The position numbers were made by a program, and so were the translations under genes. A stretch of 62,323 nt of DNA, the filler included, from Thermodesulfobacteriota bacterium (GTDB lineage Bacteria; DASVDK01): the NCBI GenBank assembly GCA_036381125.1. It is 8 parts of 8 records of this genome, joined end to end, with 100 filler letters (N's around TTAATTAATTAA, not from the genome) between each part and the next. Parts side by side here need not be neighbours in the genome. Positions count along the whole stretch, not along the records: positions 41,394 to 46,686 come from DASVDK010000179.1; 7 more parts are not named here. The stretch is one strand, 5' to 3'. Every line of letters starts with the position of its first letter. Positions within the stretch are counted from its first letter, which is position 1. Of this stretch, positions 41,394 to 46,786 are shown piece after piece. Under the pieces are notes generated by a model. It was not told the DNA's origin, made no database searches, and was given only the letters and a program-made list of their open reading frames with translations.

Positions 41394-41834
41394 GCCGATC
41401 GAGGCGCGAGCGCGGAAGGCCGCCTCGGCGGGCGGAAGCCCGGCGGGCAGCCGCACGAAGGCCGGGACCGCGAGCCCCGCGCGGGCGAGCCGCTCGCGGC
41501 TCTCCGCCTTGTTGCGCGCGGCGTCGACGGCCGAGACGGGGTTGGCCGGGATCCCCAGGCGCTCGGCCACGGCGGCCGCCAGCGCCGCCGTGTCGTCGTC
41601 GACCCCCACCACGGCATGCACGGGGTGGCGGGAGGCGAACTCGGCGGCGGCGGCGACGGCCCGCTCGCGGTCGTGGAACGGGAGCGTCAGGAACCCCGTG
41701 GGGTTGGCCGCCGCCATCACGTTGGGCTCCTCGGAGCCGACCGTGAGGTCGGCTCCGAGGCCAACGGCGGCCTTCATGAAGTCCTCCGCCCGGTAGGTGC
41801 CGGTCGGCAGGAGGAGGAGGAGCCGCGGCCTCAG
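41394..41834 (-). CDS. ATP-grasp ligase (L-amino-acid-ligase-like), 3' truncated
   Basis: LLLLPT.TYRA.DF..AA, VVGVDD, LGIP.NP..AV.AARNK…R..L..AG..VP.F; probable CTG start. Confidence 0.8.
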
Positions 41835-42535
41835 GAGAGGCGCCCCCTGTGGAAGCGCTCGAGCTCGTCGTTCGCCTTGACGATGGTCTCGAGCCGGTCG
41901 ACGACGGCCCCGAGCGAGGCGCCGGGGAGGCTCGCGTAGAGCTCGCCGTCGGCGAGCCTCGTGTAGACGCGGTTGCCGATGCAGCCGAGGCTCACCGCCG
42001 CCCGGCCGGACGCCTCGGAGGCGGGGATGGCGGCGCAGGTCGGCCGCCCCATGACCGTGCCGTCGGGCCCCACGCCGGCCAGCGTGGCGGCCTCGGTGAG
42101 GAGCATGATCTGCCTGGCCGTCCCGCGCACCATCACGACCGCCGGCTCCACCGGCGTCGCCTCGAGCGGCGCGTAGACGGCCACCTTGAGCGGCGTCCTG
42201 CGCCGCGGGATCTGCGCCACCTCCTCCAGGCGGATGTACTGGAGGTCGACCATCGTGCCGATGAGCCCCTCGAGCTCCTTTGCCGTGGCGGGCGGCAGCT
42301 CCACGGCATGCGTGTGGGCGCCGATGGGGCACGACATGTGGTCGGCCGCCTCGGTGTAGAAGGCGCCGGACTCGGCGGCCTTCGGCCAGTAGCCGCACCC
42401 GGCCGGTGCGGCGGCGGCGCGCGGGATCCCGGCGGGCGGCGCGTCCGGAAACGCGACCGCAACCGGCGGCGCCGCGAGGCCGAGAAGGGTCGTCAGGCGC
42501 CGGCCGGAAGCCCTGGCGGCATCGAGCGTCGTCAT
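41831..42535 (-). CDS. DUF169 family Cys-rich protein
   Basis: PVAV.F, GC.YW, CPIG, RPTC and SLGCIGNR.Y..L…EL. Confidence 0.8.
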   Translation of the reverse strand: MTTLDAARASGRRLTTLLGLAAPPVAVAFPDAPPAGIPRAAAAPAGCGYWPKAAESGAFYTEAADHMSCPIGAHTHAVELPPATAKELEGLIGTMVDLQYIRLEEVAQIPRRRTPLKVAVYAPLEATPVEPAVVMVRGTARQIMLLTEAATLAGVGPDGTVMGRPTCAAIPASEASGRAAVSLGCIGNRVYTRLADGELYASLPGASLGAVVDRLETIVKANDELERFHRGRLS

Positions 42536-42551
42536 CGTCGACCGTCCTCCC

Positions 42552-43148
42552 TCACTTCTTCGCTGGCGAATAGTACGGGTTGGTCCCCAGCGCGTGCTCC
42601 GTGGTGTCGAGAATGGCCACCACCTCCGGCACCTGCTGCCGGATGGTGGCCTCGATGCCCTGCTTGAGCGTCACGTTGGCCATCCCGCAGCCCTGGCAGC
42701 CGCCGCCGAGCCGCACGTAGACGATCGCGTCCTCCACGTCGATCAGCTCGACGAAGCCGCCGTGCGAGGCGACGGCCGGGTTGATGTCCCGGTCGATGAT
42801 GGTCTGGACCTTCTCGCGGATCCCCCGGTCCACCTCGCTCACCACCTTCGCCCCCTCCGCGATCGGCGGCACGCCGGACCGGAGCGCCTCGCGGATGGCG
42901 GCGCCGATCCGCTTGCCGATGACCGGCCAGGGATCGGGGTTGTCCTTCGTCACGGTCACCGTTCGACCCGAAACCGTGAGCGAGGTAACGCCGTCGATGT
43001 CGAGGATCTTTTCGGCCAGCGGAGAGCCGAGCGCTTTGTCGGGCGTGGCGAAGCGGATGGTCCCCTCCGGGTAGATCGGCCGGTCGACGACGAACCGGCA
43101 GGTCCGGTCGTCCACCGGTTCACCCGTGATCCTGATCTCGTCGCTCAT
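42552..43148 (-). CDS. NfuA/NifU-like Fe-S carrier (Nfu N-terminal scaffold + NifU-C)
   Basis: SPLA..I..I.GV; INPAVASHGG…GGCQGC..A..TLKQGIE…NPYY; AAGGAGG RBS. Confidence 0.9.
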   Translation of the reverse strand: MSDEIRITGEPVDDRTCRFVVDRPIYPEGTIRFATPDKALGSPLAEKILDIDGVTSLTVSGRTVTVTKDNPDPWPVIGKRIGAAIREALRSGVPPIAEGAKVVSEVDRGIREKVQTIIDRDINPAVASHGGFVELIDVEDAIVYVRLGGGCQGCGMANVTLKQGIEATIRQQVPEVVAILDTTEHALGTNPYYSPAKK

Positions 43149-43167
43149 ACGGCCTCCTTGGTCGGTG

Positions 43168-44640
43168 TCATGTTCGTTCGAGAGAGCCCAACTGGCCCTC
43201 GGTCGGCTCCGCTCAGCAGAACCACGCTTCGGCGAGCCTCGGGGGACGCCTTCCCGCCGGCGCTCCAGCCGCCGGCACCTTCCGACGGGGCGCGGCGTCC
43301 TCGCCTGCCGGCGCTCCACTCGCCGGCACCATCCGTTGCGGCGCGGGCACGCCTCCGGCTCGGCAGGAGGCGAGGTCCCGGAGCCGCTCGAAGGTCGACG
43401 CGTGCGGCTCCCCCGTGCGCGCGGCCTCCTCGACCAGCGCCGCCGCCTCGCGCTGGAGCGCGTCCATGCGGGGGTCTGGGTGCCGCCACCGGTACGTGAA
43501 CGCCGCCTCGTCGAGGTCGCCCAGGTGCGGCCGCATCGCGTCGGACCCGAGCAGGAGCGACCCGGGCGGCACGAGGAGCCTCAGCGTGTAGTGCACCGGG
43601 TCGATGTGCTCGACGAGCCCCTCGCCGTCGACCACCTCGAAGAGCTCACGATAGCTCTCGAGCGTTTCCCAAGGCGTGAACGGCACGAGCGTCGGTCGCA
43701 GGACGAGGCCGGCGGCTCGCGCGAGCGCCAGGACCTCGAGCACGTCGGCCCGCGTGTGCCCCTTGGCGAGACTGGCGAGCACCGTGTCGTTCAGCGACTC
43801 GACGGCGGTCACGACGAAGGCGCAGCCGGTCTCGACCAGCTCGGGAAGGAGGCGCCGGTGCCGGAGCAGGTGCTCCACCTTGATCGTGGCGTCGAACGTG
43901 ACGTCCGGGAACTCGGCGTGGAGCGCCCGCGCCAGGCGCATGCCGTGCGTCGGCCCGTTGAAGAAGTCGGGGTCGCCGAACGTGATGTGGCGAGCCCCCG
44001 CGGCCACCTGCCGCCGGATGTCCTCGAGGACCACGTCGCGCGGCACGGCGAAGAACCGGCCGCCGTAGACCGGTGGAATCGGGCAGTGGCGACACGCGTG
44101 CCGACACCCCCGGCTGGCCTCGGTATAGCCGGCCACGTCGAGCCGCCCGTCGCCCCGATCGAGCGGCGCGTAGCGGGCGAGCGGCGGCAAGGCGGCCCGC
44201 GACGGCACGCCGAAGGACAGCCGCTCGAGGACCGGCTCGCGCGAGGGGGCCGGCGTCTCGCCCCGCTCGAGCGCCTGCGCCAGCTCGACCAGGCGCTGCT
44301 CGACCTCCCCGCCCAGCACCGAGTCGGCGCCGTGGCCGAGCAGGTGCTCGGCGTTCAGCGTGGCGTAGAGGCCGTAGAGGCAGACGTGCGCCCCGGGGTT
44401 GGCGGCCCGGACGGCCGCGAGCGCGCGCACGCCGAGCCGCAGCGCCGTGTGCATCGGGACCGAGATGGCCACGAGGCGGGCCCGCGACACCGCGGCGAGG
44501 TCGAGCCGCTCGGCGGCCAGGTCGAGTGCGGCCGGGCGGAAGCCCGCCCGCTCGAGGAAGCCGAGCGCCGAGGCCACCGCGAAGGGCTGGTGGCCGAGCT
44601 CGTAACAGGAAATGAGAAGCACCTCACCTTCGCCGCGCAT
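43168..44640 (-). CDS. B12-binding-domain radical SAM protein with CUAEP tail; predicted selenoprotein (UGA=Sec at 43213-43215)
   Basis: YELGHQP N-terminus; SRGCRHACRHC; ITFGDPDF. Reading through TGA gives …WFC-U-AEPTEGQLGSLERT*. Confidence 0.88.
43182..43200 (-). promoter_or_regulatory. Candidate bacterial SECIS hairpin
   Basis: GAGGGCC-AGUUG-GGCUCUC: 7-bp stem with a GU-containing loop, starting after a 12-nt spacer 3' of the UGA. Confidence 0.65.
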
Positions 44641-44970: not shown

Positions 44971-45947
44971 ATGGCGTCAGCGGCACACGTCGAGGCGGTC
45001 AAGAAGTCGAAGAACCCCCTCGACGTCCTCGAGGACATCCGGCGCTACGCGCGCGAGGGCCTCGCGGCCATCGATCCGGACGACCGGGACATCCGCTTCA
45101 GGTGGTTCGGCCTCTACACCCAGCGCCCCCTCGAGGACGGCTATTTCATGCTGCGCGTGAAGCTGCCGGGCGGTCAGGCGACGGCCGACCAGTTCGAGGC
45201 GCTGGCCGACATCTCGGAGCGGTACGGTTGCGGCGTCCTCGACGTCACCGACCGGCAGAACGTCCAGTTCCACTGGCTGCGGATCGAGGACATCCCGGCG
45301 GTCTTCGACGCGACGCCAGCCCTCGAGGCGGCGAGCCGCCACGTCACCGGGAACCGCGAGTTCTCGGACCTCCCGCGGAAGTACAGGGTCTCCATCGCCG
45401 CCTGCGGCCACCGGTGCACGCACCCGGAGATCAACGACGTGGCGCTCGTCGGCGTGTCGCACGGCGACATGCGCGGCTTCGACCTCTGGGTGGGCGGCGG
45501 CCTCAGCACGGCGCCTCGGTTCGCGACGCCGCTCGGCGTCTTCGTCCCCGAGGCGGAGGCGGTCGAGACGAGCCTCGGCCGCCCCCTCGCCGACGGGCCT
45601 CCGGCGCCCGACCCCGACGACCCGCTCGCCGACCGGCTCGAGGCGGACGGGCTCTCCGTCGGACGCCGCTCGTACCGTGCACAGACGATGGCCTGCACCG
45701 GCATCGAGTTCTGCAAGCTCGCCGACATCGGGCTGCTCGGCTCGCGGGTGAAGGTGGGCGGGGAGGCGCGGCAGGCCTACCAGGTTTACCTCGGCGGCCG
45801 CGGCGGCGCGCGGCGGCGCTCGAGGCGCTCGGGGCGGCCGAGAGCGACCCGGCGCACGAGGTGCTGACGCCGGGCGGCGCCGACGCCCCTGCCGACGACC
45901 CCATTGCGCTCGCGGCCGCCGCGGCCGGAGCAGGAGACCTGCCATGA
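44971..45947 (+). pseudogene. Ferredoxin-dependent sulfite/nitrite reductase (SirA/NirA/CysI-like) with multiple internal deletions and a terminal frameshift
   Basis: RW.GLYTQR, FMLRVK.PGG, TDRQNVQFH, LPRK and ACTGIEFCKLA are present. The ACGD..RN and GCPNSC segments are absent. Confidence 0.8.
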
Positions 45948-46686
45948 CGAAGATCTTCGTGATCCACGAGCACGACGTCTGGGTCGAGCCGCTCCGCGAG
46001 GCGTTCCGCGCGGAGGGGCTCCCCTTCGAGGAGTGGTTCCTCGACGAGGGCACGCTCGACCTGTCGGCCACGCCGCCCGACGGCGTCTTCTACAACCGGA
46101 TGAGCGCGTCCTCCCATACGCGCGACCACCGGTACGCGGCCGAGTACACCGGCCTCGTCCTCGCCTGGCTCGAGTCGCACGGTCGGCGCGTCGTCAACAA
46201 CGGCCGCGCCCTCCAGCTCGAGATCAGCAAGGTGGCGCAGTACGAGGCGCTCCGCGCGTTCGGCATCCGGACGCCGCGAACCGTGGCCGCGGTCGGACGC
46301 CGTCACGTGATCGAGGCAGCGCGCGCGTTCGAGCCGCCGTTCATCACGAAGCACAACCGGGCCGGCAAGGGGCTCGGCGTGCGCCTGTTCCGCTCCCACG
46401 ACGCCCTGCGCGCGTACGTCGAGGGCCCGGACTTCGAGGTGCCGGTCGACGGCGTCACCCTCGTGCAGCAGTACGTCCAGGCGCCCGAGCCCTTCATCAC
46501 CCGCGTGGAGTTCGTCGGAGGCCGGCTCCTCTACGCGGTCCGGGTCGACACCTCGCTCGGCTTCGAGCTCTGCCCGGCCGACGACTGCCGGACCGGCGAC
46601 GCCTTCTGCCCGACCACGCCGTCGCCGGCGCCCCGATTCCGCATCCTGCCGAGCTTCGACCACCCGATCGTCGAGCGCTACCGGCG
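45944..46686 (+). CDS. RimK-like ATP-grasp (alpha-L-glutamate-ligase-like), 3' truncated
   Basis: NRMSASSHTR, ALQLE.SK..Q, P.T, KHNR.GKGLGV.LF, QQYV and FELCPAD.C. Confidence 0.82.
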
Positions 46687-46786
46687 NNNNNNNNNNNNNN
46701 NNNNNNNNNNNNNNNNNNNNNNNNNNNNNNTTAATTAATTAANNNNNNNNNNNNNNNNNNNNNNNNNNNNNNNNNNNNNNNNNNNN
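46687..46786. other. Artificial contig linker
   Basis: N-run with TTAATTAATTAA. Confidence 0.99.

Follow-up and report, generated by a model that had tools for sequence, protein, structure and literature searches.

A CUAEP-tail radical SAM selenoprotein related to ArsL and its probable partners: an L-amino-acid ligase, an Nfu-type protein and a DUF169 protein

Introduction

To our knowledge, transfer of the aminocarboxypropyl (ACP) group of S-adenosylmethionine (SAM) is so far known for just one radical SAM enzyme of the PF04055 family, ArsL. The enzyme is isolated with As bound to it. As described in the ArsL preprints (bioRxiv 10.1101/2024.02.01.577332 and 10.64898/2026.04.29.721666), ArsL splits SAM to methylthioadenosine (MTA) and keeps ACP on the unique iron of its cluster; its C-terminal cysteine motif binds As(III) and is needed for product formation, not for SAM cleavage. 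The same preprints state that PF04055 enzymes nearly all yield 5'-deoxyadenosine (5'-dA), the known exceptions being ArsL and TsrM. The present report concerns a relative of ArsL, a radical SAM selenoprotein gene (43168..44640, minus strand), and the three genes that follow it in a 62,323-nucleotide (nt) stretch of DNA from a Thermodesulfobacteriota bacterium (assembly GCA_036381125.1), referred to below as the window. Seven spacers (N...TTAATTAATTAA...N) link the contigs of which the window is made up, and the four genes, all on the minus strand, lie on the contig that occupies positions 41394 to about 46700.

The family to which the selenoprotein belongs is already catalogued, having been named by NCBI as the CUAEP/CCAEP-tail radical SAM (seleno)protein family, NF040546. 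Where the Haft preprint speaks of this family, it is mentioned only as uncharacterised, and CU motifs are tied there to heavy-metal handling (bioRxiv 10.1101/2022.07.06.499078); a search of the literature found no paper on the function or partner genes of the family. A second point of comparison is provided by the L-amino-acid ligases, among them BacD (YwfE) of bacilysin synthesis and BL00235 (PDB 3VOT), which is reported to form Met-Gly and Met-Met (PMC6920838). Conserved adjacency and genome-wide co-occurrence make it highly probable that the radical SAM, Nfu-type, DUF169 and ligase genes are linked, physically and phyletically, as one functional system. An orphan selenoprotein is thereby placed in a defined system of three or four genes. 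Its companions are a dedicated L-amino-acid ligase, iron-sulfur (Fe-S) helpers and a DUF169 subfamily that hardly occurs outside genomes with the radical SAM gene; for DUF169, this is the first close functional context.

Results

The radical SAM reading frame starts at 44640 and runs for 475 codons (44640..43213, minus strand), up to a TGA at 43215..43213 that follows ...AEAWFC. Reading this UGA as selenocysteine (Sec) extends the protein to 490 amino acids through the tail AEPTEGQLGSLERT, which ends at a second TGA (43170..43168), the true stop. The product scored 679.9 bits against NF040546, for which the cut-off is 500, with residues 7-485 aligned to positions 1-467 of the 468 in the profile. 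The tail that defines the family, WFC-U(TGA)-AEPT (in full WFCUAEPTEGQLGSLERT), is present, and the protein is a full member of NF040546 from which it does not itself differ. A PF04055 Radical_SAM core was recognised by Pfam, and the cluster motif CxxxCxxC lies at C179/C183/C186. Relatives were found in at least 576 stretches of a one-genome-per-species collection, and the family comprises about 8000 protein clusters; as a sister family of ArsL, it is far larger than ArsL.

ArsL (NF040542) was the second-best family, at 295.1 bits and below its cut-off of 450. Residues 7-406 aligned to positions 1-414 of the 423 in that profile, that is, to all of ArsL but its tail. The two proteins share an N-terminal Rossmann-like domain, the CxxxCxxC core and a C-terminal extension with a chalcogen-rich tail. 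They differ in the tail itself, where ArsL has RCCLKC and the protein in the window has a Cys-Sec pair (two ligands) on a longer linker; no CCxxC/RCCLKC As(III)-binding motif was found in the latter. They also differ in their partners, which are ArsM and ArsQ for ArsL and the ligase, Nfu and DUF169 here, where the annotated neighbour clusters are without an arsenic gene. As judged from these comparisons, the protein belongs among the Sec enzymes of the CUAEP family and is the closest relative of ArsL. The original prediction, made from the sequence of the window, had likened the enzyme at this locus to those of the ArsL type; homology over the ArsL model outside the tail bears this out, and the sub-cut-off score and the missing RCCLKC motif do not.

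Readthrough of the UGA was assessed in 80 related loci, which are contigs from the one-genome-per-species collection with taxon labels hand-coded from the record titles. The tail codon was TGA in 67 of them, TGC or TGT in 11 and unscorable in two. The WFC-U-AEPT tail was kept in 78 of the 80, and the in-frame peptide behind the codon, AEPTxxQ[LF], is conserved. Among the 120 database homologues listed, nearly all stop at ...WFC, and the two Cys forms, P0119 and P0125, run on as CAEPT or CAEPS. In the window, a hairpin of the type of a bacterial Sec insertion sequence (SECIS) was computed to fold at 43182..43200 (minus strand; GAGGGCC-AGUUG-GGCUCUC), beginning 15 nt past the UGA. A hairpin in which five or more consecutive pairs close a loop of CAGUU or CAGGU occurred in 67 of 68 UGA forms (window included) and in one of 11 Cys forms, and G-C and A-U pairs were exchanged at three stem positions (35/9, 33/12 and 28/17 among the 47 sequences whose loop has 5 nt). 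SelB scored above cut-off in all five of the relatives' genomes searched. On these comparative grounds the UGA is a true Sec codon, as had been proposed, because a conserved tail follows the TGA, the hairpin covaries in the UGA forms and it is lost in the Cys forms.

Three Cys forms (L027, L054 and, from Thermogemmatispora aurantia A1-2, L040, with TGT or TGC) retain part of the SECIS stem, with one to five closing pairs, and look like recent switches from Sec to Cys. SelD was present in 37 of 42 Chloroflexota genomes with the radical SAM gene and in 108 of 159 without it; with a background of 145 of 201 genomes, co-occurrence with SelD was uninformative as a test of a selenium link and was set aside.

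Behind the radical SAM gene, on the same strand, lie genes for an Nfu-type Fe-S carrier (42552..43148, 198 amino acids) and a DUF169 protein (41831..42535, 234 amino acids), followed by the N-terminal 147 codons of an ATP-grasp protein, putatively of the L-amino-acid-ligase type (41394..41834), which is cut by the end of the contig. These coordinates agree with the predicted arrangement of four co-oriented genes. The Nfu and DUF169 genes are separated by 16 nt; the gap between the radical SAM and Nfu genes is 19 nt with readthrough and 64 nt without it, so the tight spacing exists only if the UGA is read, as had been claimed. The predicted 4-nt overlap between the DUF169 stop and the ligase gene (CTGA) stands only with a CTG start for the ligase. 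No canonical start (ATG, GTG or TTG) was found nearby in frame, and the CTG is a plausible, if non-canonical and putative, start. No terminator-like site was found on the minus strand between the genes of the cluster. The contig gave no credible Rfam or riboswitch match (the sole match was to a small RNA, at 25 bits and E 0.41), and a Rfam scan of 15 related loci gave none at gathering score.

Partners recur beside relatives of the radical SAM gene. In 48 of the 80 loci, representing at least six phyla, one or more of Nfu, ligase and DUF169 lay within 3.5 kb of it (ligase in 31, Nfu in 34, DUF169 in 14). When only loci with 3 kb or more of sequence on each flank were counted, of which there were also 48, a partner was present in 28. 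By taxon label, a partner lay within 3.5 kb in 19 of 23 loci from Rokubacteria/Methylomirabilota, 7 of 7 from Poribacteria (Nfu only), 6 of 7 from Nitrospirota, 5 of 6 from Acidobacteriota, 6 of 10 from Planctomycetota and 2 of 7 from Chloroflexota. The possibility that the partners are not conserved near homologues, raised with the original prediction, is countered by these 48 loci and by the genome-wide co-occurrence described below. Gene order is shuffled between phyla and each pairwise adjacency was found, the orders including radical SAM-Nfu-ligase, radical SAM-DUF169-ligase, radical SAM-DUF169, Nfu-radical SAM and ligase-radical SAM-Nfu. The exact order of the window was found again in a Fuerstiella metagenome-assembled genome (MAG; L077) and in a metagenome locus (L100). 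The Fe-S helpers near the radical SAM gene vary yet recur: three Nfu architectures were seen, and in five loci a YggX-like Iron_traffic gene lay upstream of the radical SAM gene. A major facilitator superfamily gene was upstream in only five loci. No further widely conserved family was seen around the radical SAM gene among the annotated neighbour clusters of the 80 loci, to which all such negatives refer, several minus-strand, antisense-shadow-like clusters having been left out. It had also been suggested that more genes may follow the ligase; in the relatives nothing widely conserved lies behind it.

A few small reading frames were noted in particular lineages. A frame of about 144 amino acids, convergent to the ligase (L054, 6098-6532, minus strand; MGEVN...GERLYKAA...HYGCDLD...EEVQG.W.HD) and without a Pfam match, has counterparts in L019, L115, L136, L153, L157, L160, L163 and L168, and occurs in nine of the 30 loci of the radical SAM-DUF169-ligase type. 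A protein of about 160 amino acids, also without a Pfam match (cluster c35), is encoded behind DUF169 in four Planctomycetota loci (L029, L037, L042 and L044) and directly after the radical SAM gene in another (L056). In Rokubacteria, a frame of about 95 residues rich in Arg and Lys (…YGFERRRR…WEWFSPSR…; no Pfam match) lies upstream of the radical SAM gene in L001, L005, L009, L023, L046 and L076.

Co-occurrence was measured across genomes with a ligase orthologue model (alignment A3) and a DUF169 subfamily model (A4). The ligase model gave exactly one strong match (601-675 bits) in each of five genomes, in three of which the ligase was unlinked to the radical SAM gene (at distances of 189 and 73 kb in two, and on a separate contig in the third). 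Among 201 Chloroflexota genomes, with ligase hits counted at E <= 1e-100, 40 carried both genes, two the radical SAM gene only (in one of these as a partial match), 11 the ligase only and 148 neither; among 151 Acidobacteriota genomes the corresponding counts were 22, 1, 5 and 123. These tallies include the unpublished genomes G043, G178 and G229, without which each cell shifts by at most one. Pooled, the ligase was present in 62 of 65 genomes with the radical SAM gene and in 16 of 287 without it. Fisher's test gave P = 1e-29 for Chloroflexota and 1e-20 for Acidobacteriota, values that ignore shared ancestry and whose off-diagonal cells are blurred by MAG incompleteness. The radical SAM system is carried by about a fifth of the sampled Chloroflexota genomes and a seventh of the sampled Acidobacteriota genomes. 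The DUF169 subfamily was found in 23 of the 201 Chloroflexota genomes, namely in 22 of 42 with the radical SAM gene and one of 159 without it. In the reverse direction, 80 metagenome loci centred on DUF169 contained the radical SAM gene in 23 cases, the ligase in 19 and Nfu in 11.

The ligase fragment in the window matches PF18130 (ATPgrasp_N) only. Its full-length orthologues (L015 and L077) add ATP-grasp_4 and LAL_C2, the same three-domain architecture as that of BL00235 and BacD, and the nearest solved relative of the L077 protein over its whole length was BL00235 (3VOT, E 1.7e-34), followed by BacD. In these full-length orthologues, the predicted ATP-grasp ligase is of the L-amino-acid-ligase type by its domains and the 3VOT match. 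It differs from the described ligases in forming a distinct orthologous group, with 50-63% identity across phyla, and in its association with a radical SAM enzyme and with Nfu; the window contains its first 147 codons only.

An Nfu homologue also adjoins the ligase where the radical SAM gene is elsewhere or was not found. In all three of the ligase-only Chloroflexota genomes inspected, an NfuA-type gene (Fe-S_biosyn + NifU) lies divergently beside the ligase, and in two of the three an NDH-2-like flavoprotein gene lies behind it. ArsL-type radical SAM enzymes were considered as alternative partners of the ligase and rejected, none scoring over cut-off in the five genomes searched of the 11 ligase-only Chloroflexota. 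A Gemmatimonadota genome (L085, 4992-9218, minus strand) has MetE, a two-domain Nfu and the ligase in a row on a contig other than that of the radical SAM gene; MetE is the cobalamin-independent methionine synthase, and its position is a hint, in this one genome, of methionine or homocysteine metabolism. In one ligase-only Chloroflexota genome (L088, 3929-5266, minus strand), a gene resembling the RuBisCO large subunit lies about 700 nt downstream of the ligase, a single case. Some RuBisCO-like proteins work in MTA and methionine salvage.

The Nfu protein comprises PF08712 (Nfu_N) and PF01106 (NifU) domains, the latter with CxxC in GGCQGCG; the N-terminal domain is Nfu_N and not the A-type Fe-S_biosyn domain. 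It had been labelled NfuA, a name that cannot be retained, as it falls below both equivalog cut-offs (90.9 bits against 269.35 for TIGR03341 and 76.9 against 268 for NF008392), and it is described here as an Nfu_N + NifU protein instead.

The DUF169 protein matches PF02596 with 78.2 bits (gathering score 27), residues 13-213 aligning to positions 1-208 of the 209 in the profile. In an alignment of 41 sequences the invariant columns were C47, D65, H66, C69, C167 and C185. The papers that mention DUF169 give, in the passages concerned, genomic context and no function: the gene occurs near HgcA-like genes, SepRS or TauE, and in a phyletic profile with YedE. An AlphaFold2 model reached a mean confidence (pLDDT) of 95.9. 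No solved relative of the fold was found by Foldseek against the PDB (E <= 0.001) or by a PDB sequence search, and a wide VIA-align comparison gave a best Z of 5.9 (2dvk, 99 residues aligned, root-mean-square deviation 4.1), which is at noise level. Two ESM Atlas clusters, with 61 and 203 members, contain proteins in which this domain is fused to ferredoxin domains of the 4Fe-4S type (TM-score 0.83). A redox role for DUF169 is suggested, because the same domain is joined elsewhere to these ferredoxin domains.

Discussion

The reading favoured here, tentatively and at slightly less than even likelihood, is that the ArsL-like radical SAM selenoenzyme and the L-amino-acid ligase form the core of one linked system with ArsL-type chemistry. 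In such a system the radical SAM enzyme would, like ArsL, break the S-C(gamma) bond of SAM, and the ACP group would be passed to an atom X (Se, S, As or similar) on the flexible C-terminal Cys-Sec pair, the products being MTA and 2-amino-4-X-butanoate, a methionine-shaped amino acid. Transfer to an atom held by the Cys-Sec pair is proposed because of the homology to ArsL and the position of the tail. The ligase would then use ATP to join 2-amino-4-X-butanoate to a second amino acid, yielding a dipeptide. Nfu would install or repair the [4Fe-4S] cluster of the radical SAM enzyme, a task that the YggX-like protein may perform in other lineages; the apparent interchangeability of the Fe-S helpers (Nfu in three architectures, and YggX) fits a cluster whose iron is exposed during turnover. 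DUF169, with its four cysteines, would serve as a redox or carrier protein in readying or supplying X. The regiochemistry of SAM cleavage, the role of the tail, those of DUF169 and Nfu, and the product are all predictions from sequence, as are the organo-metalloid product and the metal binding by DUF169 that had been suggested originally.

This scheme resembles diphthamide synthesis by analogy only. In that pathway Dph6 performs the ATP-dependent ligase step. The step before it is the movement of ACP from SAM by a [4Fe-4S] enzyme, Dph2, the chemistry of which is given in the ArsL preprints (bioRxiv 10.1101/2024.02.01.577332 and 10.64898/2026.04.29.721666). Dph2, however, lies outside PF04055 and acts on a histidine within a protein, Dph6 does not belong to the ATP-grasp enzymes, and there is no sequence relationship between the two systems.

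An intracellular product, rather than an arsinothricin-like antibiotic, is argued for by the lack of recurring arsenic genes or an exporter among the annotated clusters, by the single conserved copy and by carriage in about one in five and one in seven of the sampled Chloroflexota and Acidobacteriota genomes. If the ArsL analogy is true, a SAM-derived amino acid or dipeptide would be widespread in environmental bacteria. A bolder version, which is considered distinctly unlikely, is that of a widespread and hitherto unrecognised pathway forming carbon-chalcogen or carbon-metalloid bonds, in which an ArsL-type enzyme would use its Cys-Sec tail to make from SAM a methionine-shaped amino acid containing Se or S, and the ligase would convert it to a dipeptide that acts with Nfu-type carriers in maintaining Fe-S clusters; rather than an antibiotic, the pathway would yield a novel selenol or thiol cofactor of low molecular weight. 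Its carriers would, with the same low likelihood, make up a large share of the bacteria of soil and sea, among them Methylomirabilota, Gemmatimonadota, Chloroflexota, Acidobacteriota, Planctomycetota, Nitrospirota and Poribacteria.

Several observations weigh against ArsL-type chemistry in a linked system. Two ligands, Cys and Sec, are available in the tail, where ArsL has three Cys; the radical SAM protein scores under the ArsL cut-off (295 against 450 bits) and lacks RCCLKC; and cleavage that forms MTA cannot be told from cleavage that forms 5'-dA by sequence. The radical SAM gene was without a partner in 31 of the 80 loci within 7 kb on the gene-cluster map (32 by the 3.5-kb tally), and adjacency was seen in none of 14 Gemmatimonadota loci. 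No arsenic gene, methyltransferase or exporter occurred in at least four of the 80 loci among the annotated neighbour clusters. SelD was not seen in four genomes with a Cys-form radical SAM protein, which counts weakly against an obligatory link to selenium metabolism. DUF169 is present in only about half of the genomes with the radical SAM gene, and of 26 DUF169 loci with both flanks, 11 had a partner and 15 had none adjacent. From these 15 loci and from the co-occurrence counts (22 of 42 against 1 of 159), the DUF169 subfamily is specific to the radical SAM system, yet often unlinked.

The alternative that best survives, although rather unlikely, is a linked system in which the radical SAM enzyme follows canonical chemistry. 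Its target, an amino acid or a short peptide, would be modified by a 5'-deoxyadenosyl radical, with electrons or a hydrogen atom relayed by the Cys-Sec pair as a redox-active selenenylsulfide tail; the reductant would be DUF169, and the ligase step would either precede or follow the modification. The Gly-Cys-Sec-Gly redox tail of thioredoxin reductase is a model for such a shuttle. The CxxxCxxC motif and PF04055 core are those of a family that nearly always makes 5'-dA, the tail bears just two chalcogen ligands, the fusions of DUF169 to ferredoxin domains agree with electron transfer, and no metalloid genes were found nearby among the annotated clusters. However, ArsL is the only characterised homologue over the whole length of the protein, the tail stands at the position of the substrate-binding tail of ArsL, and the nearest solved ligase takes methionine, which has the shape of ACP-X.

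Less probable again is that the ligase and Nfu are the core, producing a thiol or selenol dipeptide for Fe-S trafficking or redox buffering, that is, a lineage-specific low-molecular-weight thiol, with the radical SAM enzyme and DUF169 as additions that would provide an unusual building block in most carriers but not in all. The ligase and Nfu genes are adjacent in 19 of the 80 loci and stand together, with MetE, away from the radical SAM gene in the Gemmatimonadota genome. The absence of a conserved exporter, the single-copy genes and the 50-60% identity across phyla would suit an intracellular housekeeping product. A role of the ligase and Nfu independent of the radical SAM enzyme may exist, because the ligase occurs in genomes without that gene (16 of 287), is paired with an NfuA-type gene in all three inspected, and had no ArsL-family enzyme in the five searched; this, too, counts against ArsL-type chemistry in one linked system. 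Against a ligase-Nfu core, it is drawn from gene context only, Nfu stands beside the radical SAM gene in Poribacteria with the ligase 189 kb distant, and the ligase-only genomes are possibly incomplete MAGs. An arsenic system like that of arsinothricin, in which the radical SAM enzyme would convert As(III) to hydroxyarsinothricin or a closely similar compound and the ligase would build this into a Trojan-horse peptide antibiotic, is very improbable: the homology to ArsL, the bacilysin-type dipeptides built by L-amino-acid ligases (with BacD among the PDB matches) and the link of CU motifs to heavy-metal handling drawn in the Haft preprint (bioRxiv 10.1101/2022.07.06.499078) speak for it, but the score is below the ArsL cut-off, RCCLKC is missing, ars, arsM and permease genes do not recur among the annotated clusters, and one conserved copy in about a fifth of Chloroflexota and a seventh of Acidobacteriota sampled is unlike a sporadic antibiotic cluster.

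Other features of the window

Divergent from the operon, on the plus strand, lies a reading frame of 298 amino acids resembling nitrite/sulfite reductase (44971-45867). It has NIR_SIR_ferr and an incomplete NIR_SIR 4Fe-4S domain, and looks truncated or degenerate. It is followed on the same strand by a second ATP-grasp gene (45944-46738), which is RimK/LysX-like (46.8 bits against TIGR00768, below cut-off), reaches the end of the contig and is unrelated to the L-amino-acid-ligase-type gene. Both were rejected as members of the system, having no counterpart in the 80 related loci. A single RNA gene was found in the 62 kb of the window: a tmRNA gene on another contig (32531-32904, plus strand), with the tag peptide ANDNVEVALAA.

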